A stretch of 64,000 nt of DNA from Patescibacteria group bacterium (GTDB taxonomy: Bacteria; Patescibacteriota; Patescibacteriia; SBBC01; CAIJZX01): assembly GCA_038065275.1 (NCBI GenBank), contig JBBTRH010000005.1:26466-90465 (forward strand). The letters are read 5' to 3'. This document shows positions 7,832-59,042 of this stretch, one piece after another. Under the pieces are notes generated by a model. The model made no database searches, was not told the origin of the DNA, and saw only the letters and a list, made by a program, of their open reading frames with translations. A program made the position numbers and the translations under genes. Positions within the stretch are counted from its first letter, which is position 1. Every line of letters begins with the position of its first letter.

Positions 7832-7929
7832 AAGTATGACAGTAGTGTATCATATATGAAAAGTGGTGTCAAATGGTACTTATTCAATGACCAAAAGCGG
7901 CCTCCATTCCCGCACGCCCTCTCCTTCCG

Positions 7930-7970
7930 GCGCCCCGCCGCCGCATTTTCCCGCCGCCCGAGGGGTTCGT
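7930..7970. repeat. IR-A left copy: 41-bp perfect inverted repeat (GC-rich junction element)
   Basis: GCGCCCCGCCGCCGCATTTTCCCGCCGCCCGAGGGGTTCGT; exact reverse complement at 11353-11393; followed by a short hairpin and GCGCCGC. Confidence 0.8.
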
Positions 7971-7998
7971 GCCCCGCTTTGCGGGGCGCGCCGCTAAA

Positions 7999-8277
7999 TT
8001 ATGGTAATAAATTACGCCTCATCCAGTCAGTCACATCTTTTGAAATATTAAAAGTCGCCCAATTACTATTTGGAACTTCGATAACCATTACTTTGTCAAC
8101 CGATTTAATTCTATCCCTAATGCCATCCCGAATTTGTGCAATATCTATAGGAGTTTTGATTATCCAAGTATTGGCACACGGTCTTGCCCATTGTGAGGCG
8201 GTTTTAAGGTACGCTATCAAATTCGGATAACTATTTTCCGTATAACTTAGCTGATAAGATATTAAGAATGATTTCAT
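7999..8277 (-). CDS. hypothetical 92-aa protein immediately downstream of the PIN-like gene
   Basis: AT-rich ORF, 3-nt gap to upstream stop; no recognisable motif. Confidence 0.4.
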   Translation of the reverse strand: MKSFLISYQLSYTENSYPNLIAYLKTASQWARPCANTWIIKTPIDIAQIRDGIRDRIKSVDKVMVIEVPNSNWATFNISKDVTDWMRRNLLP

Positions 8278-8280
8278 ATC

Positions 8281-9339: not shown

Positions 9340-9438
9340 GCTTGGACTATTTAACTTCAGATGGGTTATCTCTCATGGGCTTGTTGTGCCAATGTTATTA
9401 CAAATCACAGAATAAACTCACAAAAACATTACATGTGT

Positions 9439-10236
9439 CTAAAAAATAGTAGTGACTTTATTGTACAACATTGACAAACAATCCTGCTTCATACGGAATT
9501 TCGTCCCATGATTGTGTCCGGTGCGAGCATCAAAATCAACGAGTATTTTTCCCTCTTCAAGTGCTTTCAAAAACCCTTCAAAACTGAATTTCTGTAGCAT
9601 CATCACTTTTGTATAATGATAGTATTCTTTCTTTTTATTAACATAAACTTCGGCCTGGACGTAAAAGGTATTTAAAAGCTTTGTACCCGCTTTATGCTCT
9701 AAGTCATCGAATCCCCAGTACGGCTGTGGATTTAATTCGCCAAGCCCAACACGTTTTTTAACCAGTTCAAGCCATCCCTTGTGTCGTGCATCAACTCCAG
9801 ACGCTTTAAATGAAATTAAAATTTTACGCTTATTTCGGTCGATTACGACTTTGAAACCTCGATCACTACGCGATTGTCCATGGATTGTTTGCCTAAAACT
9901 CATTTCTCCTGCTGGATACTTTTTTCCGTCCTCTTGGTGAGCCCATCCATATTGTGGTAATAAAACCTGTGGGACAAAGCGAATCGCTCGTGGTGACGGT
10001 TCAATATGAAAAAGTGTCGTGAGTGAAGTAGAGTTAAGTCTTTGAGTTTTTAACTCCCACTCAGCGGCATTAGGGATTGGTAGGTTATTTTCCTTAATGC
10101 CCAGTAAATCTTCAAGTGTATTCCCAATGCCACCGGCGTTTCCTCGACGTGCATTTGGGACCCACCCCAATTCTGAAATCTCTTTTAGCCGCTCAACTAG
10201 TGCTTCTTTAGTATAAATGACTGGTTTCTTTGCCAT
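9439..10236 (-). CDS. type II restriction endonuclease, MvaI/BcnI-like
   Basis: ORF 9439..10323 trimmed to MAKKPVIYTKEAL; last gene of C-M-R operon; family assignment by recall, not search. Confidence 0.5.
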   Translation of the reverse strand: MAKKPVIYTKEALVERLKEISELGWVPNARRGNAGGIGNTLEDLLGIKENNLPIPNAAEWELKTQRLNSTSLTTLFHIEPSPRAIRFVPQVLLPQYGWAHQEDGKKYPAGEMSFRQTIHGQSRSDRGFKVVIDRNKRKILISFKASGVDARHKGWLELVKKRVGLGELNPQPYWGFDDLEHKAGTKLLNTFYVQAEVYVNKKKEYYHYTKVMMLQKFSFEGFLKALEEGKILVDFDARTGHNHGTKFRMKQDCLSMLYNKVTTIF

Positions 10237-10240
10237 ACAG

Positions 10241-10996
10241 TTATAAAAGTTTTGACTGGGATTGATGTTGCTTAATCCTTTTACGCGCCATTTCACAGTA
10301 ATCGGGAGAAATATCAATGCCAATATACTTGCGTTTATGGTTAATTGCGGAAATGGCCGTCGTCCCTGACCCCATAAATGGATCTAAAACTACTTTAGCG
10401 TCTGTTGCCGAAATTATTCGGTCAATTAACTTTACAGGAAACGCGGCAGGGTGTTTATTGTTCATTTCTTGGGTAAACTCCCACACATCTCCGAGAGCAT
10501 TTGCTTTATCGGCAAGCTTAAATTTTGGTTTAGCAATCAAATAAATTACTTCGTAAGTCGGTAAAAAGTAACCGGCGTTAAAATTCAACCCACCTTTTCT
10601 TTTCCAAATGATTATCTGGCGCACGGGAAAACCAGCCACAATATCTTGTCGATCTTGCAAAAGTCCCGCCTGAACACGCCATTTATGATTGTAAAAAATT
10701 GCGCCATTCTCAGGAATAATTCTTAGCATTTCGGTAAGGGAGTCTCTTTGCCACTTCACATACTTTTCGTGCGGCATACTGTCATCATGATGAGAGTACC
10801 CATTTTGAAGTGCCGCGTTTGCCCATTTTCCACCCCGACCATCTTTCATTCCGTTTCCAGTTGAATTTTTTAGGTTATACGGAGGCGAAGTAACGACTAA
10901 ATCTACCGACCCGTCGGGTATTTGTTTCATTACATCAACGGCATTTCCGCAAATATTTTTGTTGATAAAATCTAATGGATAGTTGAGCTTTTTCAT
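10241..10996 (-). CDS. DNA methyltransferase, beta-class amino-MTase (N4-cytosine or N6-adenine)
   Basis: DLVVTSPPYN (motif IV) N-terminal and FDPFMGSGTT (motif I) C-terminal = beta-class order. Confidence 0.8.
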   Translation of the reverse strand: MKKLNYPLDFINKNICGNAVDVMKQIPDGSVDLVVTSPPYNLKNSTGNGMKDGRGGKWANAALQNGYSHHDDSMPHEKYVKWQRDSLTEMLRIIPENGAIFYNHKWRVQAGLLQDRQDIVAGFPVRQIIIWKRKGGLNFNAGYFLPTYEVIYLIAKPKFKLADKANALGDVWEFTQEMNNKHPAAFPVKLIDRIISATDAKVVLDPFMGSGTTAISAINHKRKYIGIDISPDYCEMARKRIKQHQSQSKLL

Positions 10997-10997
10997 A

Positions 10998-11273
10998 TTA
11001 CTTTAGAAGATCATCACTGGAAATTTCTAACGCTTGAGCAAGTCTTGCCACTGTCGAAAGAGTCACGTTTCTTTTACCATTCTCAATGCCACTAATGTAC
11101 GCTCTGTCAGCGCCAATTTTCGAAGCAATGTCTCCTTGGGACATTCCTTTCTTCGTCCGTATCTTTTTGAGATTATCGCCTAAACGGGAATTGATCGTAT
11201 CGGTATTCACTTGACCAATATACTCCCTTGTTGCACTATAGAGCAATAGTGTACTATAGTACACAAAGCACAT
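10998..11273 (-). CDS. controller (C) protein, XRE-family HTH regulator of the R-M system
   Basis: MSQGDIASKIGADRAYISGIENGKRNVTLSTVARLAQAL HTH; first gene of C-M-R operon; true start probably internal (GTG ~11210). Confidence 0.65.
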   Translation of the reverse strand: MCFVYYSTLLLYSATREYIGQVNTDTINSRLGDNLKKIRTKKGMSQGDIASKIGADRAYISGIENGKRNVTLSTVARLAQALEISSDDLLK

Positions 11274-11352
11274 TGGGGAGCCGAAAGCGCGCGCACGGGA
11301 GGGCGGGGCAAGCGCTTATCTCTACAGGCGGCGCATCCCGTAGCAACGGGAT

Positions 11353-11393
11353 ACGAACCCCTCGGGCGGCGGGAAAATGCGGCGGCGGGGCGC
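11353..11393. repeat. IR-A right copy (reverse complement of 7930-7970)
   Basis: 41/41 identity in inverted orientation. Confidence 0.8.
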
Positions 11394-11486
11394 GGGCGGG
11401 CGGAATTCCCCCTTAGACCCCCTTCCGCCCGCCCGAATCGCCTAAAACTGCCCTTCAAAATAGGTTCGAGCGGCGTTCAGCAATTT

Positions 11487-11580
11487 CCACCAAATGAAAC
11501 TTCCGCGAAAGTCTACGGTCAAATTCCAGGGTTTAGCCAATATCCACCGCACGCTTTTATCCACCAGGCGGCGGTTCGTA
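11487..11580. repeat. IR-B left copy: 94-bp inverted repeat
   Basis: reverse complement of 13901-13994 with a single mismatch; creates artefactual ORF 11442..11672 (-) that mimics the recombinase C-terminus. Confidence 0.85.
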
Positions 11581-11736
11581 GCCCCAGAAGGGGCTAGGTA
11601 TGAAAATGGTCGTGTGATATTACCATTTTCGTACCTTCCAATTTTTTCCGGTTCCGCTCCGAAGCGGAACACGAAGCAAGTTTTTCCGAATCCCGCGCTT
11701 CACTTCCAGTAGTAAGAATGGTTAACTAATAGCACT

Positions 11737-12534
11737 ATGAGCATAAGAATTATCATGCGAGACAATAGCGGTAATAAGTTCTGGATTATTACCCCAAACA
11801 TTAGTATGTATAGCTTTGCGTCCAAATCAAAAAACGTGACTTTCTTGGAAATCTTTTATCGCTTTGCACAGGTTCTAGTTAAACCGCGGAAAGGGCTAAC
11901 AAAGGGTGAAGAGGAGAAGATACTTTTGTCGAGAAAACGGGTCTTGGTTGAGTTAAACAATAAGGTAATGGCGTTAAAATACCTTGCCAACGAATGTAAA
12001 AAGCAGGGCGAGAAATTAATTGCGAGAAAAGATAGCAAAAAGAGAATATACGACTATAAACCATATCAAGTTTTTCTGGCTCTTTGTGAAAGTTATCTGG
12101 ACACTGTACACAGTACCTACGATTGCATCGCTGATCTGGACGGGTTTTTAGGCAAGAAATATGCCCGTGCTATCAATAAAGAACAATGGTTTAAGATCGA
12201 TATGGATTTAAGAAACGTTTTTCATCACAACCAAAGCCCTCTAGTTACTATTGAGAAAGGGAAGGTAGATTTCACCATAGAAAAGCTACCAAGGAGCCCA
12301 AGATTTTTGACTCCGGCAATGAAAAACCCACACGGACGATACGAATTCTCTTTAGACCCAAAGGATTTGGGCGAAGACATTCTTACATTTCTTGAAAAAT
12401 GGGCAAAGCAATATTTGGATTTGATTGATGGCAACGAGAGCATTGACGCAATTGCGGGTTATAAAAAAGATGGTGGTGTAAGAACCAAGAAAGTCACCTT
12501 AAAAGAACTTATGAAACGAGTCGTTGCTACCTAA
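11737..12534 (+). CDS. hypothetical protein (265 aa) upstream of serine recombinase
   Basis: AT-rich ORF 6 nt upstream of recombinase start; no motif recognised; start may be an internal Met. Confidence 0.4.
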   Translation: MSIRIIMRDNSGNKFWIITPNISMYSFASKSKNVTFLEIFYRFAQVLVKPRKGLTKGEEEKILLSRKRVLVELNNKVMALKYLANECKKQGEKLIARKDSKKRIYDYKPYQVFLALCESYLDTVHSTYDCIADLDGFLGKKYARAINKEQWFKIDMDLRNVFHHNQSPLVTIEKGKVDFTIEKLPRSPRFLTPAMKNPHGRYEFSLDPKDLGEDILTFLEKWAKQYLDLIDGNESIDAIAGYKKDGGVRTKKVTLKELMKRVVAT

Positions 12535-12539
12535 AAACT

Positions 12540-14030
12540 ATGCGGTATTTTCTTTACGCTCGAAAATCAACCGAGGATGAAGAACATCAGATCATGTCCA
12601 TTGAGGCACAGCTCTTTGAGTTGTCCGAATATGCCAAGCGAGAAAAGATAACCATTGCCGAAAAGTTTATTGAAAGTAAAAGCGCGAAAAGTCCCGGTCG
12701 GGAAATTTTCGGCCAGATGATTGTCAAAATACAGGAAAGTAAAGAACCAATCGGCATTCTCGCTTGGCATCCTGATCGCTTGGCCCGAAATAGTATTGAT
12801 GGTGGTCAAATTATCTACCTCGTCGACGGCAAGAAAATCGCGGCCTTGCGTTTCCCGACATTCTGGTTTGAACCGACACCGCAAGGGCTATTCATGCTCC
12901 AAGTCGCGTTTGGCCAATCGAAATACTATTCGGACAACTTAAGCGAGAACGTGAAGCGCGGGATTCGTCAAAAACTCAGACGTGGTGAGTCCCCAAATTA
13001 TGCGGCAATCGGGTACGTCAATAATTTTAAAACCCGGACAATTGAACCCGATCCGTTCAAAGGGCGTGTCATCGCTAAAGCATTTGAAGAATATGCGAAA
13101 GGAATGCACACCCTCGAAAGTCTAGGCAAGCGTCTGAGTTTTTGGGGTATAGTCAGTCGGACCGGAAAGCCGCTCCCAAAAGCAACGTTGAGCCGAATGT
13201 TGACCAATCCGGTTCATTGCGGATTGATTCGGCATAATGGCGAAACATATCCGGGCGGTTTTGCCGCTAACGTCTCGATGGAGTTATTCGAAAAAGTCCA
13301 GAAAGTCTATAAGCAAAATCAAAAAGGTCATCATTTTCGTAAGCGTCATCATTTTGCTTTAACTGGACTATTGAAGTGCGGAGAATGTGGCGCGGCAATA
13401 ACCGCCCAAAATACCAAAGGTCATGGCGGTTGGTATGTGTATTATCGCTGTACCAAACGTCTTGGTCCTTGTAAGCAAGGATACATTCAACAAGAGCGGC
13501 TTTCCGATCTGATCCGCGCAAAGGTTCGAGAAGTTGCAATAAGCGAAGACTGGGCGAAGAAAATGTTGGATAAGGTAACGATGTGGGAAAATGAGATCGC
13601 CCAGTCTTCGCAGTCTTCCGCCCAAAATCTCAAAACAAGGATGAAGGAAACAGAATTACAGCTTGACCGCATAGTGAATGCTTTCCTTGATGGCTCTATT
13701 GAAAAGGCTGTTTATTTGGAAAAGAAAGATGCATTGATTAAAACTCAAACTGGCCTTGAACAGAAAAAGGCGGATTTTGGGCGGAAGACCCTTTATTGGA
13801 TCGAACCTTTGCGCCAGTGGATATTAGACGCTCAAAAGGCCGAAAAACTTGCTTCGTCGAACGATTTACCTGAATTGAAATCGTTCGCGGAAAAAATTGG
13901 AACGAACCGCCGCCTGGTGGATAAAAGCGTGCGGTGGATATTGGCTAAACCCTGGAATTTGACCGTAAACTTTCGCGGAAGTTTCATTTGGTGGGCCCCC
14001 CGGGACTCGAACCCGGAACTCTCAGCTTAA
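12540..14030 (+). CDS. large serine recombinase (resolvase/invertase N-domain + recombinase domain + zinc-ribbon)
   Basis: YARKSTEDE...SIEAQ catalytic Ser motif near N-terminus; 496 aa; Cys cluster CGECG...C..C; 3' end runs through IR-B and into the tRNA-Lys gene on the opposite strand. Confidence 0.8.
   Translation: MRYFLYARKSTEDEEHQIMSIEAQLFELSEYAKREKITIAEKFIESKSAKSPGREIFGQMIVKIQESKEPIGILAWHPDRLARNSIDGGQIIYLVDGKKIAALRFPTFWFEPTPQGLFMLQVAFGQSKYYSDNLSENVKRGIRQKLRRGESPNYAAIGYVNNFKTRTIEPDPFKGRVIAKAFEEYAKGMHTLESLGKRLSFWGIVSRTGKPLPKATLSRMLTNPVHCGLIRHNGETYPGGFAANVSMELFEKVQKVYKQNQKGHHFRKRHHFALTGLLKCGECGAAITAQNTKGHGGWYVYYRCTKRLGPCKQGYIQQERLSDLIRAKVREVAISEDWAKKMLDKVTMWENEIAQSSQSSAQNLKTRMKETELQLDRIVNAFLDGSIEKAVYLEKKDALIKTQTGLEQKKADFGRKTLYWIEPLRQWILDAQKAEKLASSNDLPELKSFAEKIGTNRRLVDKSVRWILAKPWNLTVNFRGSFIWWAPRDSNPELSA
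13901..13994. repeat. IR-B right copy (includes CCA end and 3' flank of tRNA-Lys)
   Basis: 93/94 identity to reverse complement of 11487-11580. Confidence 0.85.
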
Positions 14031-14063
14031 AAGGCTGATACTCTACCATTGAGTTAGGGACCC
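13992..14063 (-). tRNA. tRNA-Lys (anticodon UUU), CCA encoded at 13989-13991
   Basis: cloverleaf on minus strand: acceptor GGGUCCC/GGGGCCC, D-arm, anticodon loop CUUUUAA, T-arm CCGGGUUCGAGUCCCGG. Confidence 0.8.
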
Positions 14064-15781: not shown

Positions 15782-15914
15782 CCCCGTTAGAAATGAAGGA
15801 AGCTAGTCAAAGCCTCACGGTTTCCTAAGCTAATTCGCTGGAGAAGATTAGTCATTGGATTGATTATCTATAGCCACAATTACCTGCTCTTCGTCAGATT
15901 CATTTCTAACGGGG
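15782..15914. mobile_element. MITE-like element copy A (TIR CCCCGTTAGAAATGAA / TTCATTTCTAACGGGG; TSD CAT)
   Basis: 16-bp perfect terminal inverted repeat; flanking CAT duplicated at 15779-81 and 15915-17. Confidence 0.7.
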
Positions 15915-16101
15915 CATCGAGTCGAATTATATAGAATTATCATCGTCGGTTCAAGCCCCGATGTTCCGCGAAAGCGGGAATTTGGACCCGACCCGACGTA
16001 TTTAGGAGGTGTCGGGGCTGTGGACGGGCGGTGTGGACGGTGTGGGTGTAAGTCGGCGTTGCGGCTATCGCCGCCACCTTGTACAATAACCTTAACTATG
16101 T

Positions 16102-16270
16102 CCCGTTAGAGGTTACCGTTCTATCTAGAAATAATTCTCAATGAACCGCCAGGACAAAATTTTGCGCCGTCTTCCGGCCTCAAAAGCCCGCGAGTGGCAT
16201 CAAGAGCTAACCATAGATAAGTCTTTTATTGGGCACCTGGAACCGGATAATTTGTGTAACCTCTAACGGG
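16102..16270. mobile_element. MITE-like element copy B (TIR CCCGTTAGAGGTTAC)
   Basis: 15-bp TIR; right terminus directly abuts dnaB ATG at 16271. Confidence 0.65.
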
Positions 16271-17644
16271 ATGGCCACCCCTGCTTCGACCGACATCCGC
16301 ATCCCACCCCAGCAACTCGAGGCCGAACAGGCCGTCTTGGGGTCTTTGCTGATCGACCGCGACGCGGTCATCCGCATCGCCGACACGCTGGTGCCGGAAG
16401 ACTTCTACGCCGACAAACACCGCTACGTCTTTGACGCGATGCTGACCCTCTACCAGCGGCACGACCCGATTGACATTGTGGCGCTGTCGAACCTCCTGCA
16501 GGAGCGCCTCCGTCTCGACGTCATCGGCGGACGCAGTTTTCTCGTCTCGCTCTCGAACGCCGTCCCGACGGCGGCTAACGTCGTCCAGTACGCCGCCATC
16601 GTCCAGAAAAAGGCCACCCTCCGTCGGCTGATCGACGTGGCCGGCACCATGCTGCAAAGCGGCTACCAGGAAACGGAGGACGTTTCGGCCCTGCTCGACA
16701 AAGCCGAGCAATCGCTGTTCAACGTCTCCCAGCGCTATCTCCGCCAGAATTTCATCAACATCCGCGACGTCCTCGACGAAGCCTTTGACCGGATCGACCA
16801 GCTCCACCACGAATCCGGCCAGCTCCGCGGCGTGGCGACCGGTTTCACCCGCCTCGACTCCCTTCTCGGCGGGCTCCAGAAGTCCGACTTGATCATTCTG
16901 GCCGCCCGGCCGTCGGTCGGCAAAACCTCGCTGGCCCTCGATATCGCCCGGAACGTGGCGGTCAAGTCGAAACTGCCGGTCGGCCTCTTCTCACTCGAAA
17001 TGTCGAAGGAACAGCTGGTTGACCGTTTACTCGTCGCGCAGGCTGACGTTGATCTTTGGAAGATGCGCACCGGCCGGTTGAAAGACGACGAAGACTTCCA
17101 GCGCATCGGCCACGCCATGGGCGTCTTGGCCGAAGCGCCGATTTTCATCGACGACAGCGCCAGCGCCAACATCATGGAAATCCGCACCAAGGCTCGCCGG
17201 CTCCAGTCCGAACATAAGACCCTCGGCCTGATCGTCATCGACTATTTGCAACTGATGGAAAGCCGGACTGGCGAAAACCGCACGCAAGAAGTTTCGGAAA
17301 TCACGCGCGGCCTCAAATCAATCGCCCGCGAGTTGAACGTGCCGGTGCTGGCGCTGTCCCAGCTGTCCCGCGCCGTTGAACTCGAACGGCCGCCGATCCC
17401 GAAACTCGCCCACTTGCGCGAATCCGGTTCAATCGAGCAGGATTCCGACGTGGTGATCTTCATCTACCGCCCGGCGGTTTACGATCACGACCTGCAAGAC
17501 GACAAGAAGAACCTGGCCGAAATCCATATCGCCAAACACCGCAACGGCCCGACCGGCCGCGTTAACCTGTCCTTCGTCGAACGCCGCGCCAGTTTCGACA
17601 ATCGTGATGAGCGGATGGGTGAACCGGAGTTTCAGGGGGAGTAA
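16271..17644 (+). CDS. dnaB: replicative DNA helicase
   Basis: ORF 16229..17644 trimmed to MATPAS; Walker A ARPSVGKTS, RecA-like C-domain, N-terminal DnaB domain. Confidence 0.9.
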   Translation: MATPASTDIRIPPQQLEAEQAVLGSLLIDRDAVIRIADTLVPEDFYADKHRYVFDAMLTLYQRHDPIDIVALSNLLQERLRLDVIGGRSFLVSLSNAVPTAANVVQYAAIVQKKATLRRLIDVAGTMLQSGYQETEDVSALLDKAEQSLFNVSQRYLRQNFINIRDVLDEAFDRIDQLHHESGQLRGVATGFTRLDSLLGGLQKSDLIILAARPSVGKTSLALDIARNVAVKSKLPVGLFSLEMSKEQLVDRLLVAQADVDLWKMRTGRLKDDEDFQRIGHAMGVLAEAPIFIDDSASANIMEIRTKARRLQSEHKTLGLIVIDYLQLMESRTGENRTQEVSEITRGLKSIARELNVPVLALSQLSRAVELERPPIPKLAHLRESGSIEQDSDVVIFIYRPAVYDHDLQDDKKNLAEIHIAKHRNGPTGRVNLSFVERRASFDNRDERMGEPEFQGE

Positions 17645-17741: not shown

Positions 17742-18041
17742 ATGTTCAACAAGCTCAAACAATTCAAAGACCTCCGTCACCAGGCCAAGGAAATGCAACA
17801 TACCCTGGCCCAGGAAACGGTCTACGCCGATAGCGCCCGCGGCAAGGTGCAGGTCGTGATGGACGGCAATCAGCACGTCAACGGCCTGACCATCGACCCG
17901 GAGTTACTTAAGCCGGAGCGCAAAACCGAAACGGAGAGGGCCGTCCAGGACGCCTTCAACGACGCGGTCAAGAAGTCGCAGATGGCGATGGCCAAGAAGG
18001 CTCGTGAGATGGGCCACCTCAACCTACCGGGATTGTCTTAA
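17742..18041 (+). CDS. ybaB: YbaB/EbfC nucleoid-associated protein
   Basis: 99 aa, MFNKLKQFKDL... family signature; classic ybaB-recR pairing. Confidence 0.8.
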   Translation: MFNKLKQFKDLRHQAKEMQHTLAQETVYADSARGKVQVVMDGNQHVNGLTIDPELLKPERKTETERAVQDAFNDAVKKSQMAMAKKAREMGHLNLPGLS

Positions 18042-18139
18042 CCCCGTTAGAAGTTTTCTTGATTGCCCTTGTAGCTGGTTTAACAATCATGCTCGTATGC
18101 GCATAAGGCGGTCGTTTATAGACAATAACTTCTAACGGA
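18042..18139. mobile_element. MITE-like element copy C (TIR CCCCGTTAGAAGTT)
   Basis: fills the whole ybaB stop to recR GTG interval. Confidence 0.6.
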
Positions 18140-18739
18140 GTGGCGACCTACCCGCCAGCGATTGCCCGTCTGCTTGATGCATTGACGACGCTCCCCGGCG
18201 TCGGCCCGAAAACCGCCGAGCGGTATGTGTTTTCGCTCTTGCGACAATCGCCGCAACGCTTGCATGAGCTTTCGCAAGCGGTTGAACACCTGCGCGATCG
18301 GATCGTACTCTGTTCGCGTTGTCATACTTTCGACGAGCAGAATCCCTGCCGTTACTGCGCCGACCAGAACCGCGATCAGTCGATTATTTGCGTCGTGACT
18401 GACTCCCCTGATGTCTTAGCGATCGAACACACCGGCGCCTACAAGGGCCAGTACCACGTTCTCGGCGGAACGGTCAGTGCTATGGAAGGCCGCGGGCCGG
18501 ACCAGCTCTTTATCCGCGATCTGGTCGTCCGCATTCCGAAAGAAAACGTAACTGAGGTCATCCTCGGGATGAATCCAGACATCGAGGGCGAGACGACGAC
18601 GCTGTATCTGAAAAAAGCGCTCGAGGGACTACCAGTAAAAATTACCCAGCTGGCTCGGGGCATACCGCAGGGCGGGGATGTAACCTACCTGGATGAAGCT
18701 ACTCTATCCGAAGCCATAAATCACCGACAAACGGCCTAA
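18140..18739 (+). CDS. recR: recombination protein RecR
   Basis: HhH LPGVGPKTAER, C4 zinc finger CSRCHTFDEQNPCRYC, Toprim domain; GTG start. Confidence 0.9.
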   Translation: MATYPPAIARLLDALTTLPGVGPKTAERYVFSLLRQSPQRLHELSQAVEHLRDRIVLCSRCHTFDEQNPCRYCADQNRDQSIICVVTDSPDVLAIEHTGAYKGQYHVLGGTVSAMEGRGPDQLFIRDLVVRIPKENVTEVILGMNPDIEGETTTLYLKKALEGLPVKITQLARGIPQGGDVTYLDEATLSEAINHRQTA

Positions 18740-24719: not shown

Positions 24720-24831
24720 GTAAACGAAGTATACACTAGTTAGCGACTCATTAGCCAGTTAGTGCGTGAGTTAACTAGCTCGTTAGCTAACGAGCTAATG
24801 AGCTAATGAGCTAAATACTAAACCGCTAATC

Positions 24832-26123: not shown

Positions 26124-26609
26124 TTAGGTGGCTGAACGACGAGGCTTCGGCAGGGTCCGCGACGGACGAGTTAGCGTGACCGCTTGGCCGCCGCTGTCGT
26201 TGATGGCCGCCAACGCGGAGGCCGAGAACTTCTCCGCCTGGACGGTCAATTTCTTTGACAGCCGGCCGCGGCCGAGCACTTTTACTCCCGGCCAGGCGGA
26301 CGGAATCAGTCCGGATTTAACCAGGTCGGCGGGGGTCACCAGGGCGCCATCGGTAAAGCGCGACTGAAGTTGATCCAGGGTCACGATCTGCAGTTTCGGT
26401 TTATGACTGCGGAAACCCCGCCACTTCGGGGTCGGCAGAATCAGCGATTTGAGACTGCGCCGGGTGAGCTTGTTGCGACCCCCGGTGCGAGCGCGTTGCC
26501 CCTTCGTGCCGCGACCGGCCGTGGTACCCTTGCCGGATGAGTTGCCGCGACCGACGCGCTTGGGCTGACCACGACGGCCAGCCGGCCGAAGCGATGACAG
26601 GGTAATCAT
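26124..26609 (-). CDS. rplO: ribosomal protein L15
   Basis: Gly/Arg-rich N-region GRGNSSGKGTTAGRG; start trimmed to MITLSSLRPAG. Confidence 0.85.
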   Translation of the reverse strand: MITLSSLRPAGRRGQPKRVGRGNSSGKGTTAGRGTKGQRARTGGRNKLTRRSLKSLILPTPKWRGFRSHKPKLQIVTLDQLQSRFTDGALVTPADLVKSGLIPSAWPGVKVLGRGRLSKKLTVQAEKFSASALAAINDSGGQAVTLTRPSRTLPKPRRSAT

Positions 26610-26718
26610 ACTCCGCACCACAATAGTGAACAAAAGGATTTCAAAAACAAAGGCTGATTCACCCGGCGAATATGGTTAATATGCGGATCGGTCATATTGT
26701 CTCGATGGTGGGGCGAGG
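26610..26718. repeat. X-family palindromic spacer X3 (rpsE stop to rplO start)
   Basis: left terminus CCGCACCACAATAGTG shared with X1; degenerate right arm. Confidence 0.45.
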
Positions 26719-27252
26719 TCATATTGTTTTCCCCCGCCGGGCGGCCGCTTGTTCGCGGGTGCGCAGTTTCTTCAAAGCCTCCATCAGCGCGTAGACGTTG
26801 TTAATTTTATTCGACGAACCGAGGATCTTGCTGACCACGTTCTTGACGCCGGCCAGTTCCATAATCGCTCGAATCGGTCCGCCGGCGATAACGCCGCTTC
26901 CCTTTGGGGCCGGCTTCAGCATTAAGTAAGCACCGCCGGATTTAGTAAAAATTTGGTGCGGGATGGTGTCGTTGACGATCGGCACGCGAATCATGGCTTT
27001 CTTGGCGGCCGTGACCGCTTTCTGAATCGAATTGGAAACGTCCGAACCCTTGGCGATGCCGACGCCGACCCGGCCCTTTTGATCGCCGATGGCGACCGTG
27101 GCCCGGAAACGCATTCGCTTGCCGCCGGCCACTACCCGGGTGACGCGCGACAAATCAATGGTCTTTTGCTCAAATTCACGCGGCTCGCGCGGGCCGCTAC
27201 GGCGTCCTCGCCGTTGACCCCCGCTCCGCCTCTGTCCTGAAGGAAGTGCCAT
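26719..27252 (-). CDS. rpsE: ribosomal protein S5
   Basis: S5 dsRBD and C-terminal domain; start trimmed to avoid overlap with rplR. Confidence 0.85.
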   Translation of the reverse strand: MALPSGQRRSGGQRRGRRSGPREPREFEQKTIDLSRVTRVVAGGKRMRFRATVAIGDQKGRVGVGIAKGSDVSNSIQKAVTAAKKAMIRVPIVNDTIPHQIFTKSGGAYLMLKPAPKGSGVIAGGPIRAIMELAGVKNVVSKILGSSNKINNVYALMEALKKLRTREQAAARRGKTI

Positions 27253-27262
27253 AGAAGAACTG

Positions 27263-27610
27263 TTAAAAAATGAGTCCGCCGGCGCGAGCCGCTTCGGCCA
27301 GGGCTTTGACCCGGCCATGGTACTGGTAACCGCCGCGGTCGAAGACCACGGTAGTAATCTTCTGGGTGCGCGCTTTGGCGGCCAGCTCAGTCCCGACAGC
27401 GGCGGCCCGTTCGGTCTTGGTGGCCTTGGCGTTCAGTGGCCGATCCGTCGCCGACACCAAGGTGTGGCCGGCCACATCATCGATCAGCTGGGCCTCAATG
27501 TGCGCGTGGCTACGGAAAACCGCCAGTCGCGGTCGATCAGCCGTGCCGCTGATGCGGGCGCGGACGCGGCGATGCCGGCGGATTCGAGCGGGGGGCGTGC
27601 GGACAGACAT
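27263..27610 (-). CDS. rplR: ribosomal protein L18
   Basis: family match. Confidence 0.85.
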
Positions 27611-27614
27611 ATGG

Positions 27615-28166
27615 CTATTTGGCGCCGGCGGCTTTCACCACCTTGCCGGCTTTGCGGCGGATAACTTCATCAAGATACTTGATCCCCTTGCCTTTATAGG
27701 GTTCGGGTTTTTTTAACCGGCGGATGGTAGCGGCCGTCTCGCCGACCAGTTGTTTATCGATGCCGCCGATGGTGGCCACGTTCTTTTCAACCGTGATAGT
27801 GATGCCGGCGGGAATGGGAAAGTTGACGGGATGGGAAAAACCGAGGTTTAGGATCAGGTTTTGACCGCTCACTTGGGCCTTGAAACCGACGCCGTTAATT
27901 TCCAACTGTTTCTGGTAGCCGGCGGTCACTCCGGTGATCATGTTGGCGACCAGCATCCGCGTCAAGCCCCACAGCGCGCGGTCGGACTGCGCCTCGGCGT
28001 CCACCACGCTAACCGTCAGCTGTCGCTCGGTCAGGTGCAATGACACCCGCCGGTGGACGGTCATGGTCAGCGTGCCTTTCGGACCGGTAACGTTGACCGT
28101 CTGGCCGTCGACGTTGACTGTCACACCGTCCGGAACGAGAATTGGGAGTTTACCGATGCGCGACAT
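27615..28166 (-). CDS. rplF: ribosomal protein L6
   Basis: [10 protein letters not shown]-terminus. Confidence 0.9.
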
Positions 28167-28169
28167 AGA

Positions 28170-28553
28170 TTACGAGATTTCACAAATCACTTCTCCGCCG
28201 AGTCTGGCTTTCCGCGCTTCATCGCTGGTCATCAACCCCTGCGGGGTAGAAATAATGGCCGTGCCGAAGTTGTTCATGACGTGCGGCAACTGGTGGCGAT
28301 TGACGTAGACGCGGCGGCCGGGTTTACTGATGCGTTTCAGGGCGCCGATCACCGGCTGATTCTGGTCGTACTTCAATAACAGCTTCAATTTCGTGTTCTG
28401 CTCCAGGGCGGCCAATCCGATAATCCAGCCCTCTCGTTCGAGCACCTTGGCCAGGGCGTACTTCAACTTGGCGTATGGCAGGATGACCTCGTGCTGGCCG
28501 GCCAGCTGGGCGTTGCGGATTCGGGTCAGCATGTCAGCAATGGGATCGTTCAT
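28170..28553 (-). CDS. rpsH: ribosomal protein S8
   Basis: MNDPIADMLTRIRNA. Confidence 0.9.
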   Translation of the reverse strand: MNDPIADMLTRIRNAQLAGQHEVILPYAKLKYALAKVLEREGWIIGLAALEQNTKLKLLLKYDQNQPVIGALKRISKPGRRVYVNRHQLPHVMNNFGTAIISTPQGLMTSDEARKARLGGEVICEIS

Positions 28554-28675
28554 ACCCAGCTCCACAATAGCGAATACATCATATCGGAATTCATGTGCAG
28601 TTGAGAAAGAAAAATATCCATGGCGTGGCGATTAAGCTTCTCACTATTGTGGGGCTGGGTCATAAGCGGATAATC

Positions 28676-28861
28676 TTACCACGAGGCTTTGTGGACGCCG
28701 GGCACGTCGCCCTTGTTCGCCAGTTCGCGGAAACAAATACGGCAGAGTTCGAAATCGCGCAAATAGCCGCGTTTGCGCCCGCAACGCCAGCATCGGCGGA
28801 CCAGGCGGGTCGAGTACTTGGGCTTTTTCTTAGACTTGGCAATTTGGGCGGCGGTGGCCAT
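28676..28861 (-). CDS. rpsZ: ribosomal protein S14 (Zn-ribbon type Z)
   Basis: 61 aa, CxxC...CxxC. Confidence 0.9.
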
Positions 28862-28865
28862 AAGG

Positions 28866-29411
28866 TTAGGGGCGGCGGAAAGGGAAACCGAGGTGGTGAA
28901 GCAAGGCTTGGGCCATCTGACGATGGTTGGTCGACGTGACGATGGTCACTTCCAGGCCATGGAGATGTTCGACCTCATCGCTCCGGATCTCCGGGAAGAC
29001 GATGTGTTCTTTGATGCCGACGGTGATCGTCCCGCCCTGGCCCATGGCTTGGGGATCAAGGCCGTGAAAGTCGCGGATGCGGGCCAGGGTGACATTAATG
29101 AACTTGTCGAGGAATTCCCACATCCGCTGGCCGCGCAGGGTGACCGTCGCGCCGATGACCATGCCTTGGCGGACTTTGAAGGCCGCCACCGACTTCTTGG
29201 CTTTAGTCTGGACCGGTTTCTGACCGCTCACCCGTTCCAGCGTCTGGAGCACGGTGGCGGCGTGCTTGGGATCTTTCAAGTGCTTGCCGAAACCGGCGTT
29301 GATGACGATCTTGGAGACCGTCGGCACGGCTAAAGCATTCGTCAGACCGAACTGCTGTTGGAGGGCCGGGATGACCGTGTGACGATAGCGCTGATGAAGA
29401 CGGGAGATCAT
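28866..29411 (-). CDS. rplE: ribosomal protein L5
   Basis: family match. Confidence 0.9.
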
Positions 29412-29412
29412 A

Positions 29413-29730
29413 TTACGACAGAGGTTCTTTCGAGCGGACCGCGGTCCGGACCTTTCGACCGCCGACCATGACCGCGCCGACGCGGGTCGGGTGGCCGGAC
29501 TTCGGGTCGATCAGCATGACGTTCGACAGGTGGATCGGGCCGTTGAACTGGACCCGTTGCCCGGCTTCCTTCTGGCGCCGAGCCCGAACGTTCTTAGTCA
29601 TCTGGTTCACGCCTTCAACCACCACCCGTTGCTGTTGGGGAAAGACCTGCAGGACCTTACCCTTCTTCCCTTTGTCCTTGCCGCTGAGGACCAGGACTTG
29701 GTCGCCGGTTTTTATCCGTGAGGTGGGCAT
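29413..29730 (-). CDS. rplX: ribosomal protein L24
   Basis: KOW motif GDQVLVLSGKDKGKKGKV. Confidence 0.9.
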   Translation of the reverse strand: MPTSRIKTGDQVLVLSGKDKGKKGKVLQVFPQQQRVVVEGVNQMTKNVRARRQKEAGQRVQFNGPIHLSNVMLIDPKSGHPTRVGAVMVGGRKVRTAVRSKEPLS

Positions 29731-29733
29731 AAG

Positions 29734-30105
29734 TTAGAGCACTTCGGGGGCCAGTGAGATAATCTTGGTGAACCCTTTGGTTTTGAGTTCACGGGCGATA
29801 GGGCCGAAAATACGCGTGCCGCGCGGTTCTTTCGTTTCAGGGTCAATGATCACGCCGGCGTTCTCGCTGAACCGGATGTAGCTCCCATCGGAGCGGCGGT
29901 ACTCTTTCCGCTGACGAACGATGACCAAATGCACGACATCGCCTTTCTTAACCAGGCCGTGCGGGGTCGCTTCTTTGACCGAGCCGGTGACAATATCGCC
30001 GAGTTGGCCGTACCGTTTCCGGTGCCCGCCCCAGACCCGGAAGACGGCGACGCGCCGGGCCCCGGTGTTGTCGGCCGGTTTGATGATGGTGCGGAGTTGA
30101 ATCAT
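29734..30105 (-). CDS. rplN: ribosomal protein L14
   Basis: [18 protein letters not shown]. Confidence 0.9.
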
Positions 30106-30211
30106 GCCCCGCACCACAACAGTTGATCAGGCGTCACCGAGGGTGAAGTATGCGGATGAAAATGATATGCGGATATTTGGTACATCATAGTCTGGCGGTT
30201 GTGGTACGGGG
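30106..30211. repeat. X-family palindromic spacer X1 (rpsQ stop to rplN start)
   Basis: termini CCGCACCACAACAGTTG / CGGTTGTGGTACGG; fills the entire intergenic interval. Confidence 0.55.
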
Positions 30212-30457
30212 TCATACTTTTTTCACTACTCGCCAGCGTTTAGTAGCCGACAGCGGACGGGTTTCTTCAATCACCACCCGGTCCCCGAGGTGGTACTGGC
30301 GCTGTTCGTCATGGGCGGGAAACCGTTGGCTGACGGTAAATTGCTTGTGGTACTTCGGGTGACTGACGGTCCGATCGACGCGGACAACAACCGTCTTCGT
30401 CATCTTGTCGGAGACGACGATCCCAATCAGTTGACGTCGTTTAGCGGTCGTGGGCAT
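30212..30457 (-). CDS. rpsQ: ribosomal protein S17
   Basis: start trimmed to MPTTAKRR. Confidence 0.85.
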   Translation of the reverse strand: MPTTAKRRQLIGIVVSDKMTKTVVVRVDRTVSHPKYHKQFTVSQRFPAHDEQRQYHLGDRVVIEETRPLSATKRWRVVKKV

Positions 30458-30461
30458 GGGT

Positions 30462-30665
30462 TTAGGTGGTCGGTGGTGAGGCGGTCCGAGTCTGAAGTTT
30501 AGTGAGCACCCGGGCAATATCGCGCTTCAACTCGCGCAACTCGCGGACGTCTTGGTGCTGTCCCAGCGCAACTTTGAACCGGCGATCGCGGAGCAGTTCG
30601 CGTTTCTCCTGCAGTAGGCGCTGGAGCTCGGTCGGCGATTTCTGCTCGAGTTCGGACCAGTCCAT
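30462..30665 (-). CDS. rpmC: ribosomal protein L29
   Basis: start trimmed to MDWSELEQKS. Confidence 0.8.
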   Translation of the reverse strand: MDWSELEQKSPTELQRLLQEKRELLRDRRFKVALGQHQDVRELRELKRDIARVLTKLQTRTASPPTT

Positions 30666-30669
30666 GGAG

Positions 30670-31080
30670 TTAGCTGGCGCGCTTAATAAATCTGCTGGTG
30701 ACCGGTAATTTGTAGGCGGCCAGTCGCATCGCCTGTCGAGCAACATCTTCCTTGACGCCGTCCATTTCGAACATGATCGTGCCCGGTTTGACGATGGCCA
30801 CGTAGTGATCGACGGCGCCCTTCCCGCCGCCCATCCGAATTTCGTTGCCTTTAACGGTGACCGGTTTGTCGGGAAAGATGCGAATCCAGATTTTCCCGCC
30901 CCGTTGGACGAAGCGGGTGATGGCTCGACGGGCGGCTTCGATTTGGCGGGCCGTGACCCAGCGCGGTTCGAGCGCCTTCAGTCCGAAAGCGCCGAAACTC
31001 AATTCGAGTTTGTCGGTGGCCCGACCGTGAATCCGTCCGCGGTGCCACTTTCGGTGTTTGACTTTTTTTGGCATCATCAT
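30670..31080 (-). CDS. rplP: ribosomal protein L16
   Basis: family match. Confidence 0.9.
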
Positions 31081-31083
31081 AGG

Positions 31084-31752
31084 TTAGGCGGAGCGTGAAG
31101 CGGCGGGTGAATCCTGGGCGAAAATTTCACCGCTATAAATCCAGACTTTAATGCCGATTTTCCCGTAAGTGGTGTGGGCCTCGCCGCGACCGTAGTCGAT
31201 ACCGGCCCGGAGCGTCTGCAACGGCAGGCTACCCTGACCCAGCACTTCGGTGCGAGCGATTTCCGCGCCGTTCAACCGTCCGGCCAGGGCGACCTTGACG
31301 CCTTTGGCCCCGGCTTGGAGCACCTGTTCAATGGTATTCTTCATTACCCGCCGGAAGGGTAACCGTTTCTCGATTTGTTCGGCGATGTTGCCGACTACGA
31401 TTTGGGCGGATAGTTCCGGTTGCTCGACCTCCTGGACGTTGAGCTTGACGTTGTACTTGCCGTGGCCCATGTGCAAGCGGCGGATGGCTTGACGGAGGGA
31501 CTCGATGCCTTGTCCGCCGCGGCCGATCACCACGCCGGGCTTGGAAGTGTGAATAGTAACCGTCAGATTCTGAAGCGACCGTTCGATATCAATCCGCGCC
31601 AGGCCGGCGTTCGGCAACTTGCCGATCAAGTACTTCCGGATTTGGACGTCTTGTTTCAGCAGGGCCGGGTAATTACGCGGGCTGAACCATTTCGAATTAT
31701 AGGTGGCGGTGACACCGAGGCGAAAGCTCTTGGGATGGACTTTTTGACCCAT
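31084..31752 (-). CDS. rpsC: ribosomal protein S3
   Basis: start trimmed to MGQKVHPKSFRLG. Confidence 0.9.
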   Translation of the reverse strand: MGQKVHPKSFRLGVTATYNSKWFSPRNYPALLKQDVQIRKYLIGKLPNAGLARIDIERSLQNLTVTIHTSKPGVVIGRGGQGIESLRQAIRRLHMGHGKYNVKLNVQEVEQPELSAQIVVGNIAEQIEKRLPFRRVMKNTIEQVLQAGAKGVKVALAGRLNGAEIARTEVLGQGSLPLQTLRAGIDYGRGEAHTTYGKIGIKVWIYSGEIFAQDSPAASRSA

Positions 31753-31756
31753 AGGA

Positions 31757-32287
31757 TTAGGATGTGCCTTGACGGCGAATGGACGGATCTTCGGCCCCCC
31801 TGGCCTGCGGCTTGGCGGTTGGTGATTTAGATGGTGGCTTGAAGGCGGCTTGGCCGGGGACAATCGGCGCTTTCACCGGCGCCTGTTTGACCGGGCCTTT
31901 GGTCGCCGTCACGGCCGCCGGCTTGGTGGGCGCGGCTTTGAGCGGCGCCGTTTTAGCCAGGTCTTCCAGCACCACGGTGACATGGGTCATCCGCTTGAGG
32001 ATTTCAGCCGCTCGGCCGAAGGCACGAGGCCGATACCGTTTCAGCCGCGGGCCTTCGTTGGCGACGATTGATTTGATGCGGAGTGATTTCCGTTCAAGTT
32101 TGAAATTGTGCTCGGCGTTAGCCACGGCCGAATTCAACAGCTTCAGCACCGGCCGGGACGCCCGCTTCGGCAGGACGGTCAGCTGGTCGACGGCTTGGTC
32201 GATCGGCAACCCGCGCACCAGGTTGACCACCAGTCGAACCTTGCGCGGAGATATGTGGAGATAGCGGAGATGGGCGCGGACTTCCAT
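31757..32287 (-). CDS. rplV: ribosomal protein L22 with ~60-aa Ala/Pro/Lys-rich C-terminal extension
   Basis: MEVRAHLRYLHISPRKVRLV. Confidence 0.85.
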   Translation of the reverse strand: MEVRAHLRYLHISPRKVRLVVNLVRGLPIDQAVDQLTVLPKRASRPVLKLLNSAVANAEHNFKLERKSLRIKSIVANEGPRLKRYRPRAFGRAAEILKRMTHVTVVLEDLAKTAPLKAAPTKPAAVTATKGPVKQAPVKAPIVPGQAAFKPPSKSPTAKPQARGAEDPSIRRQGTS

Positions 32288-32400
32288 ATCCAGTACTACA
32301 ACAATGAGTAAATAATAGACTGAAAAAACATATGGCTGTCTGCACGAATAATTGCGCGGCGTGTGTTCAGATAATGCATTGTTGTAGTACCGGGCATAGG
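32288..32400. repeat. X-family palindromic spacer X2 (rpsS stop to rplV start)
   Basis: termini CAGTACTACAACAATG / CATTGTTGTAGTACCGG. Confidence 0.55.
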
Positions 32401-33581: not shown

Positions 33582-34070
33582 TTAGGCGCTCACGACGTCA
33601 ATGGTTTTTCCCGGCGGCAGGGTGACAATCGCCTTCTTGCGGTCGGCGGTCCGGCCGTAAGTGCGGCCGAAGCGGACTACCTTACCGCGCAGTACCATGA
33701 TGTTCACCGCGACCGGCGCGATGCCGTAGAGATGACGGACCGACTGGCGGACGTCGGCCTTGGTAGCCGCCAGAGCAACTTCGAACGTATACTGCGAGCC
33801 GGAGCCGCCGCGGGTTGATTTTTCGGTTACCAAGGGACGCTGGAGGACACGGTGGGCCAGATGAGCGGTCGATGAGGATGGCTGAGTAGTCGCCGAGGTA
33901 GTTTTCTCCGGTTTTCCCCGGGCCGGCGGCGTCTCGTTCTTACCCGCCGGGACGGCGGCGAAGGCTTTCCGTTCGGCCTCTTTTCCCGTGGCTGGTTTGA
34001 GTACGCCGCGCTTCGGGCCAGTGGTCTGGTCCTTGCCTTTTGTGCTCTTGAAGCGGTCGAAAAAGCCCAT
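33582..34070 (-). CDS. rplW: ribosomal protein L23 with ~65-aa low-complexity N-terminal extension (start uncertain)
   Basis: C-terminal core VLQRPLVTEKST. Confidence 0.75.
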   Translation of the reverse strand: MGFFDRFKSTKGKDQTTGPKRGVLKPATGKEAERKAFAAVPAGKNETPPARGKPEKTTSATTQPSSSTAHLAHRVLQRPLVTEKSTRGGSGSQYTFEVALAATKADVRQSVRHLYGIAPVAVNIMVLRGKVVRFGRTYGRTADRKKAIVTLPPGKTIDVVSA

Positions 34071-35309: not shown

Positions 35310-35417
35310 CCCGTTAGTCCCGTTAGAAATGAATGAAAGTAAACCATCGGTACATATGAGATTGTAATTGCTACTAATGCTTTTTCCGAAAATACGGTGA
35401 TCGTCATTTCTAACGGG
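35310..35417. mobile_element. MITE-like element copy D (TIR CCCGTTAGAAATGA; extra half-TIR CCCGTTAG at 35310-35317)
   Basis: sits between rpsJ and rplC; terminus directly abuts rplC ATG. Confidence 0.6.
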
Positions 35418-35613
35418 ATTAGAAGTCTATTTGAGAAAAACGGAATTAATTCGGCAGGTTGGAGAGATTGGTCAGAGATATAACACCGCTGTGCGGACCA
35501 ACGTCCACCGCAGCGGTGTCAACGTTGGCACGTGTTGTCCGGGATTACGGCGACAGGAGCTGGTCTTGTCATCCGCGGAACTAGGTGCCGTTAAAAAGTA
35601 TTGGCGGGAAGAT

Positions 35614-37266: not shown

Positions 37267-37326
37267 GTCTCGAGGGAAAAAACCGGCCCCGGACATGCAT
37301 GATGCATGAACTTTGGCTAAGGTTAG

Positions 37327-37427
37327 CCCCGTTAGAGGTGAGAACGATTAAGGATAATATATATTCAACAACAATGGTAATAACTACGGCCTAACAAAAA
37401 ACTTAACTATCCTCAGCTCTAACGGGG
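37327..37427. mobile_element. MITE-like element copy E (TIR CCCCGTTAGAGGTGAG; TSD TTAG)
   Basis: TTAG at 37323-26 and 37428-31. Confidence 0.65.
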
Positions 37428-37542
37428 TTAGCCTGGTTGGATGCTGGTGAGACGCACTTACAAAAAAGTTTATTTGGTTGCAGAAAGCAGAAATATGAAA
37501 TTCGGTAACAAATAACGTATAAGCCGCCTCCAATGGGGCTAA

Positions 37543-39439: not shown

Positions 39440-39646
39440 GCTTGGAATGTACCACACTTGGATAATATTTGACACCACACACCGCGGGTTCAGCCCTCCT
39501 GCCCTGCCTGTCTCGAGCTTGTCGAGGGAAGGAGGGCGCGGGGTGGCGGGAGAAACCCGCGGTGTGTGGAATGATAAAAGCATGGGCAGGCCAGTGATTA
39601 GGCCTTCGCCTTGCCGCCGATGCCATTGTCTGGGAGCCAATCGAGG

Positions 39647-58915: not shown

Positions 58916-59042
58916 GGTCGAGACGGCCGAAGAGCGAATGAACTGCTTCATTCGCGTGCCGTCGAGACGGGCAGCGCCGTGTTCCAAAGGAACAGGCGAT
59001 GCCCCGGAGCATGAGGTCGTTTACATTTTGGCGGCGGCGAGT

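Follow-up and report, generated by a model that had tools for sequence, protein, structure and literature searches.

The S10/spc ribosomal-protein (r-protein) operon considered here lies in a 64-kb stretch of contig JBBTRH010000005.1 (hereafter the window), which comes from a Kerfeldbacteria-like bacterium of the Patescibacteria, or candidate phyla radiation (CPR). Four gaps of this operon, each between the stop codon of one gene and the start codon of the next, are filled by copies of a palindromic element that we refer to as family 2, to set it apart from another palindromic family of the window, family 1. Our reading, to which we give a probability of about 0.6, is that these spacers are tolerated selfish hairpin elements which preserve the translational coupling of the flanking genes by means of a relay open reading frame (ORF), in the manner of MIRUs, the interspersed repetitive units of mycobacteria. 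An open frame, a fixed length, a constant orientation and covarying inverted repeats are all observed among the copies.

Family-2 Elements in the Ribosomal-Protein Operon

The operon runs on the minus strand, which corrects the preliminary description of this DNA, and its genes were named from Pfam matches on a 100% identical public contig together with the translations. Most of its cistrons are 1–5 nt apart, with four longer junctions: rpsS-rplV (113 nt), rpsQ-rplN (106 nt), rpsN-rpsH (122 nt) and rpsE-rplO (109 nt). Three of them had been singled out in the preliminary description as a palindromic family, namely X1 (30106-30211, rpsQ-rplN), X2 (32288-32400, rpsS-rplV) and X3 (26610-26718, rpsE-rplO). 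All three are real and fill the entire gap from stop to start; the related inverted termini are present as quoted there, and so is the internal block ATATGCGGAT common to X1 and X3. The count of three, however, was incomplete. A fourth copy, X4, occupies the rpsN-rpsH junction, and its CCACAATAG-type arms, like those of the other window copies, assign it to the same family. On the transcribed strand, every spacer consists of one 106–107 nt unit whose terminal inverted repeats start (A)CCC. At its right end, the element stands 0–1 nt from the downstream ATG, in line with the earlier remark that the terminus adjoins the start codon. Ahead of the left end of each window element stands another (T)ATG(A); in X1 and X3 it shares bases with the TGA stop of the upstream gene.

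Within this sample, family 2 is confined to the r-protein operon, and all four window copies fall within ~6.5 kb of the 64 kb. When the window and 50 loci were searched with a covariance model of ten copies (R1), no additional family-2 copy came up other than a distant 143-nt relative after secY in contig L093 and a weak match in L022. Viral contigs scanned with patterns of the family-2 arms gave unrelated palindromes only.

Relatives were collected by an L14 homologue search and exact-protein look-ups, which yielded operons from twelve lineages (given here by L numbers) whose ten concatenated r-proteins share 66–80% identity with those of the window, together with the close relative L205 at 94.8% nucleotide identity. 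In a neighbour-joining tree the window groups with L175 and then with L167, and L169 clusters with L180 and L182. The nearest species representatives belong to Kerfeldbacteria-like Patescibacteria and reach only 57% identity in L5, and the L5-based scans of genome and metagenome contigs found distant relatives only (≤57% identity) with short junctions, which are uninformative on the insertion history. Contigs with an identical L14 protein, from Hainich groundwater and a few other samples, have the spacers unchanged. The same-species contigs from other assemblies (one identical, three at 99.8–99.9%) show zero differences within the elements; such strain-level invariance is therefore uninformative on selection.

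The Proposed Relay Reading Frame

Nine copies possess a left ATG, which is 110 nt from the ATG of the downstream gene in 8 of them and 113 nt from it in X3. Since this sole length variant is longer by 3 nt, the frame is kept. The frame that begins at the left ATG is open in all 8 distinct copies. It ends in 5 of the 8 with a TGA that overlaps the downstream ATG (an overlap found in X1, X3, X4, L169b, L175a and the L205 copy), and in the three X2-type copies with a TAG 11 nt before the ATG. When the core is reversed, only 1 of the 8 frames is open, and a copy whose interior is shuffled has a probability of 0.20–0.40 of being open, which multiplies to a product of 3e-5 over the copies. The orientation is uniform across the copies, the sense strand is G-poor (6–10 G in 65 nt), and the junctions hit belong mostly to genes that start with ATGA. 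Two copies, L169c and L175c, do not have the left ATG; by our own reading of their sequences, an internal ATG opens a frame that ends on or next to the true start.

The interiors of the elements are ~30–40% identical in ungapped comparison. The ORF of L169a has the same length and frame as that of X2 with an interior that is just 54% identical. The features under constraint are the openness and the length of the frame, and not a protein. The lengths of the remnants and footprints of the elements, in L167, L177, L180/L182 and L169c, are all multiples of 3. The coordinates of the elements and of their relay ORFs are collected in Table 1.

Table 1. Palindromic elements and relay ORFs in the window
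Feature	Junction	Coordinates	Strand	Details
X2 element, family 2	rpsS-rplV	32288..32394	minus	arms CCCGGTACTACAACAATG / CATTGTTGTAGTACTGGA; 17 nt, 94% complementary
X1 element, family 2	rpsQ-rplN	30106..30212	minus	arms (A)CCCCGTACCACAAC / GTTGTGGTGCGGGG(C); 14 nt, 93% complementary
X4 element, family 2	rpsN-rpsH	28554..28660	minus	arms ACCCAGCCCCACAATAGTGA / TCGCTATTGTGGAGCTGGGT; 20 nt, 90% complementary; TATGA on both flanks
X3 element, family 2	rpsE-rplO	26610..26719	minus	right arm CACTATTGTGGTGCGGAG intact; left arm ACCTCGCCCCACCATCGAG decayed
X2 relay ORF	rpsS-rplV	32296..32397	minus	duplicated ATG 32397-32395; 33 codons; TAG 32298-32296, 11 nt upstream of rplV ATG (32287-32285)
X1 relay ORF	rpsQ-rplN	30102..30215	minus	ATG 30215-30213 overlaps rpsQ TGA (30214-30212); 37 codons; TGA 30104-30102 overlaps rplN ATG (30105-30103)
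X4 relay ORF	rpsN-rpsH	28550..28663	minus	duplicated ATG 28663-28661; 37 codons; TGA overlaps rpsH ATG 28553-28551
X3 relay ORF	rpsE-rplO	26606..26722	minus	ATG 26722-26720 overlaps rpsE TGA (26721-26719); 38 codons; TGA overlaps rplO ATG 26609-26607
Family-1 copy		15782-15914		
Family-1 copy		16101-16270		
Family-1 copy		18028-18154		
Family-1 copy		35315-35421		
Family-1 copy		37320-37434		
Family-1 copy		60953-61054		
Family-1 copy		62617-62717		
Family-1 solo arm motif		near 38916		
Family-1 solo arm motif		near 45708		
Family-1 solo arm motif		near 62252		

Insertion and Polymorphism among Relatives

It had been proposed in the preliminary description that the spacers are inserted elements, and the relatives bear this out. 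Eight lineages (L167, L170, L172, L176, L177, L178, L180 and L182) have gaps of 1–5 nt or ATGA overlaps where the window is filled, and two others have elements at partly different junctions. The X2 site is empty in L167, L170, L172, L175, L176, L178, L180 and L182, and the X4 site in L170, L172 and L175. A plain ATGA overlap is found at the X1 site in L172, L176, L177 and L178, and at the X3 site in L169, L172, L176, L177, L178 and L182. Relatives with empty junctions include lineages whose L14 is 85–89% identical to that of the window. The filled sites outside the window are those of L169 (rpsS-rplV, rplX-rplE and rpsN-rpsH) and L175 (rplX-rplE, rplF-rplR and rpsE-rplO), so that the tally is four copies in the window and three in each of these lineages, at six different junctions, with none in the eight other lineages. 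The absence of a spacer at the same junctions in relatives, together with the polymorphic copies, shows that the spacers are insertions.

The subfamilies are likewise scattered. The arm type of X4 is found in L175 at another junction, rplX-rplE, and L169b and L169c, both from one genome, are 80–93% identical. The X2 subfamily is present at rpsS-rplV in the window, in L205 and in L169; its absence from the closer relatives of these lineages implies that the junction was struck more than once or that the element was cleanly lost several times.

The target itself has left its mark at these sites. TATGA (or TATG) occurs twice at filled sites, once on each side of the element, and once at empty sites. 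The left repeat is missing in two copies, L169c and L175c, and the TATG at the right end of L169c either travels with the element or is regenerated by it. At rpsN-rpsH, 6-nt duplications in L177 (TATGAC TATGAC) and in L180/L182 (CCTATG CCTATG) look like footprints of excision. A fresh insertion is seen for the sister family, family 1, at rpsE-rplO of L180, which is absent from the 96% identical L182. On the strength of their small size, terminal inverted repeats, target duplication and dispersed copies, with no transposase encoded, the elements can be described as non-autonomous and MITE-like (MITE, miniature inverted-repeat transposable element). A parent of the IS982 type (ends AC..., 3–9 bp duplications) is one conceivable candidate.

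Folding, Covariation and Decay of the Hairpin

Long hairpins had been attributed to all of the spacers. Fold prediction agrees for X1 (-37.9 kcal/mol, z -4.2), X2 (-33.4 kcal/mol, z -4.5) and X4 (-38.5 kcal/mol, z -4.7), for each of which none of 200 shuffles was as stable, and disagrees for X3 (z +0.6), which has no stable terminal stem because its left arm has decayed. Covariation, which the preliminary description had named as the check on the stems, was found: over the 20-pair terminal helix of ten copies, 87% of the cells are paired and 12 of the 20 pairs have changed on both sides, a score that was matched by none of 500 shuffles and that slid registers came nowhere near. The termini are thus predicted to form a conserved hairpin, as supported by fold energy and covariation. 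It is worth pointing out that the covariation lies between subfamilies, as is expected for the matching ends of a transposon, and for this reason it alone is no proof of an RNA function. The inverted repeats more probably serve transposition.

Once inserted, the stems are poorly protected. The stem of X3 is lost and that of X2 is being lost, with two arm changes in the window copy relative to L205. X1 and its L205 orthologue are identical at 98 of 106 positions with no indel; the arms are unchanged and all 8 substitutions lie in the interior. L175c at rpsE-rplO of the sister lineage, which is likely the orthologue of X3, has its arms intact.

A tRNA-like fold was sought in the spacers by ARAGORN, which found only tRNA-Lys and tRNA-Pro in the window, both outside the spacers. 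Rfam gave no match on the spacers at the gathering score or at E≤1. A scan of the elements for promoters and terminators stayed at chance level, so they are neither intrinsic terminators nor obvious promoters. The analogy to tRNA punctuation, with processing as the role, that had been offered for these spacers is not supported in the form in which it was worded: there is no tRNA-like or Rfam structure, one stem has decayed and another is decaying, and most relatives are free of spacers.

A Second Family and Possible Start-Codon Targeting

Family 1 is the second and more abundant palindromic family, with arms of the form (A)CCCCGTTAGAA(A/G)TG and a length of 100–170 nt, and its copies and solo arm motifs are scattered over the window (Table 1). 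GAA, TCAA, CTAA or ATG occurs as the flanking repeat. The two families may share a transposase, since the outermost bases of family 1 (ACCCCGT) agree with those of the X1-type arms. The divergent region 15782-16273, between a minus-strand gene (start at 15781) and dnaB (ATG at 16271), consists mostly of two family-1 elements; both are flush with the ATG of the neighbouring gene and have a second ATG at the far end. Such flush placement in a region where space is ample cannot be explained by survivorship in a tight operon and hints at start-codon targeting. In L180 (9303-9390), compared with L182 (5861), where the site is empty, a 78-nt family-1 insert at the rpsE/rplO ATGA gives L15, as called, an in-frame N-terminal extension of 27 aa. 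At the same junction, L167 has an 18-nt in-frame remnant (TATGA CCCCGTTA AACGAG ATGA), and short remnants of both families are retained in this lineage.

These observations raise the tentative possibility, which we hold to be well short of even odds, that both MITE families, with their (A)CCCCG termini, actively home to start codons, and that family 2 has colonised the r-protein operon with a built-in relay frame of fixed length and specific orientation. The family-1 copies of the divergent region, and the same junctions having been hit repeatedly and independently across lineages, are what favour homing. If it is correct, the relay frame might later have been recruited to gate the coupling from cistron to cistron.

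Related elements were also seen elsewhere. In L093, a contig of a more distant Hainich CPR bacterium, a 143-nt palindromic element flanked by TTTA follows secY (10564-10706). Its arms begin with ACCCCCACACC, as do the arms of L169b and L169c. It is not at a start codon, so relatives of the family exist outside such sites. Family-1-like elements of 77–81 nt with CCCGTTAGAAAT... arms occur on contigs classed as viral in IMG/VR (L200 3127-3203, L203 3246-3323 and L204 4676-4756), and two of these are on one 30-kb contig.

Proposed Mechanism and Alternative Explanations

The mechanism that we propose begins with the insertion of the element exactly at r-protein start codons, in one small Kerfeldbacteria-like clade. 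The insertion doubles the (T)ATG(A); the stop of the upstream gene and a start of the downstream gene both survive, and the left copy of the ATG, still in its original initiation context, opens a frame of 33–38 codons across the entire element. This frame closes either at a TGA overlapping the real start, in the -4 arrangement of ATGA, or at a TAG 11 nt before it. Ribosomes that arrive from the upstream cistron, or that initiate at the duplicated ATG, would translate through the element and melt the hairpin; termination would follow at the start codon of the downstream gene, where a new round of initiation would take place. In this way coupling could be preserved in an operon whose cistrons are normally 1–5 nt apart.

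Several points weigh against this mechanism. The translation of the relay frame, and the part it would play in making the insertions tolerable, is a step that we infer from the sequences. The product of 3e-5 is optimistic, because the copies are partly related (X1 and the L205 copy; perhaps also X3 and L175c, and X2 and L169a). The frame of the X2 type already ends 11 nt ahead of the start codon. Initiation at either ATG should be impeded by the adjoining stem (-33 to -38 kcal/mol) as long as no upstream ribosome has opened it. The family-1 copies that are flush with start codons mostly have no spanning frame, so a frame is not needed for every start-codon insertion. As for the insertion step, the length of the duplication comes to 3, 4 or 5 nt according to the placement of the terminus, and it is further blurred by the T at -1 that is near-universal for the start codons of this clade. 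Neither a transposase nor a pair of termini at the spacing of an insertion sequence was found in the 64-kb window or in the fetched loci.

The hairpins could instead be substrates of a double-strand-specific RNase similar to RNase III, which would punctuate the mRNA and set the stability or translation of the downstream cistrons. This explanation is compatible with the relay mechanism, and it can draw on the near-perfect stems of 14–20 bp in X1, X2 and X4 (-33 to -38 kcal/mol, z about -4.5), on the covarying arms, and on the Correia elements of Neisseria, whose terminal inverted repeats are cleavage sites for RNase III (PMC10969869). We nevertheless consider it unlikely: it has to contend with the lost stem of X3 and the arm changes of X2, with eight related lineages that do without any spacer, with covariation of a kind also expected of transposon ends, and with the lack of a tRNA-like or Rfam structure, and cleavage leaves the fixed length, the open frame and the orientation unexplained. 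A similar standing may be given to coupling by the hairpin alone, in which the element is looped out by its stem, or the downstream start stays hidden until a terminating ribosome melts the left arm, the frame being irrelevant. The left arm in X1 and X3 begins 0–1 nt past the upstream stop and the right arm ends 0–1 nt before the start, so a terminating ribosome would indeed open such a stem. What this proposal cannot account for are the 8 of 8 open frames, 7 of which close on reversal, the length of 110 or 113 nt and the G-poor sense strand, and X3 works without a stem. Cleavage or the melting of a stem could add to the relay mechanism; neither accounts for the frame, the length and the orientation. 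The control role suggested in the preliminary description, processing or translation, has to be divided accordingly. Cleavage of the transcript is not needed to explain the data, and the translational half lies nearer to the evidence: an ORF that spans the element and links the duplicated start with the real one points, at the level of sequence, to preserved translational coupling over cleavage.

Two further explanations take the frame at other values. It may be argued that the insertions are neutral junk, merely tolerated, and that frame, length and orientation reflect chance or a recent master copy. The elements are missing in most relatives, the peptides are unconstrained, the stems decay after insertion, and the sample is limited to 11 copies, some of which share descent. 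Against this, the interiors have diverged to ~30–40% identity with zero stops or net frameshifts gained, the only change of length is +3 nt, the orientation is uniform, and remnants and footprints keep to multiples of 3; an explanation by junk alone thus appears rather improbable to us. True genes for small proteins of 33–38 aa between the r-protein genes are suggested by the ATG starts and overlapping stops in most copies, and we give this the least credence, as hardly probable at all. The peptides encoded by the relay ORFs are 22–35% identical, with similarity only at the ends encoded by the repeats, and the mini-ORFs have no Pfam match. The ORFs are never called by gene callers, and their presence differs between close relatives. 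The block common to X1 and X3 is read in different frames, and by our count on the alignment the ORF of X1 differs from that of L205 by 5 nonsynonymous and 3 synonymous changes. A function at the peptide level was rejected because of the divergent peptides, this mismatch of frames and these substitutions. We therefore retain the tolerated insertion with a relay frame as the preferred explanation of the spacers.

Other Features of the Window

Several features of the operon and of its surroundings may be recorded here. There is no rpmD (L30) between rpsE and rplO (26124-27252), and the absence of L30 is typical of CPR lineages. L22 (176 aa; 31757-32287) and L23 (162 aa; 33582-34070) are long. 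The spacer between rpsJ and rplC measures 158–335 nt in all relatives, and the secY-adk spacer, which contains palindromic, partly tandem TTAGCTCA/CGTTAGCTAACG units in the window (24747-24814), measures 32–214 nt in relatives. Upstream of the operon, at 39475-39569, an inverted repeat of 30 nt (80% complementary, 35-nt loop) lies in or beside a minus-strand ORF.

A block of low GC content at 5953-14063 (36–44%, compared with about 58%) looks like an integrated defence island. It encodes an AbiEii toxin, a PIN-like protein, a restriction enzyme of the MvaI/BcnI type with an N4/N6 methylase, and a large serine recombinase, the gene of which ends beside tRNA-Lys (13989-14063). The tRNA-Pro gene (59043-59116) lies inside a perfect 19-nt inverted repeat that reaches ~10–12 nt past both ends of the tRNA (59031-59126), and it is followed by a 23-nt hairpin with 96% complementarity (59154-59224).

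Significance and Comparison with Known Systems

The genomes of CPR bacteria are very small and tightly packed, and the essential S10/spc operon, which relies on junctions of 1–5 nt, is the site where mobile DNA would be least expected. The present elements show a route by which selfish DNA can enter it, by duplication of the start codon and bridging of the gap with a translatable frame. The filled, empty and decayed sites of close relatives also offer natural material for the study of termination and re-initiation across ~110 nt of structured RNA. There is a practical side as well, as the elements alter the spacing and the start-codon calls of marker genes that are common in CPR phylogenomics; in relatives, they have given rise to N-terminal extensions of L15 and to ambiguous starts of S8.

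Among known systems, the closest likeness is to the MIRUs, with which we compared the elements by published descriptions (Supply et al. 1997, through the summaries given by PMC12548453 and PMC3184786) and not by sequence. MIRUs are described as mobile elements that insert at start codons and have an internal ORF coupled at -4 nt (PMC12548453), and as having tetranucleotide direct repeats and imperfect terminal inverted repeats (PMC3184786). Both kinds of element are short mobile repeats that lie between the cistrons of operons, at a start codon, and hold a sense-oriented ORF with a -4 (ATGA) overlap as its link to the downstream gene; both show short direct repeats at filled sites and have relatives with empty sites, and both are thought to keep the cost of insertion low. 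The differences are also clear. MIRUs measure 40–100 bp, are often found in tandem arrays, have imperfect terminal repeats and are limited to Mycobacterium, whereas the present elements, from Patescibacteria, are single units of 106–107 nt per gap with stems of 14–20 bp and fold energies down to -38 kcal/mol. The idea behind MIRUs, previously known only from mycobacteria, would thus be extended to another phylum and to true hairpin MITEs.

The hairpin side of the elements resembles the Correia (CREE/NEMIS), RUP and ERIC MITEs, which are non-coding units of ~100–150 bp with terminal inverted repeats and long hairpins, co-transcribed with their neighbours and dispersed over filled and empty sites. 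The duplication made by Correia elements is TA, and they are not known to be tied to start codons. The flanking repeats here are (T)ATG(A) and not TA, and the documented effect of Correia elements is cleavage by RNase III or the creation of a promoter, with no relay ORF. Persistence in a compact genome through in-frame translation is shared with the palindromic, mobile Rickettsia palindromic elements (RPEs), and the family-1 copy of L180 (27 codons) and the remnant of L167 (6 codons), as in-frame N-terminal extensions of L15, are the most RPE-like cases. RPEs, however, are situated within genes and end up in the encoded protein, whereas the window copies are intercistronic and have their own stop. 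The REP2 of Neisseria and the upstream repeats of Borrelia similarly abut genes and supply their own ATG, as the TATG of L169c may do; REP2 differs in having a promoter and a ribosome-binding site and no terminal inverted repeats, while no promoter-like signal rises above chance here. Taken against these systems, the elements of the S10/spc operon are a new CPR family, in which a relay ORF of the MIRU kind is joined to a hairpin MITE.

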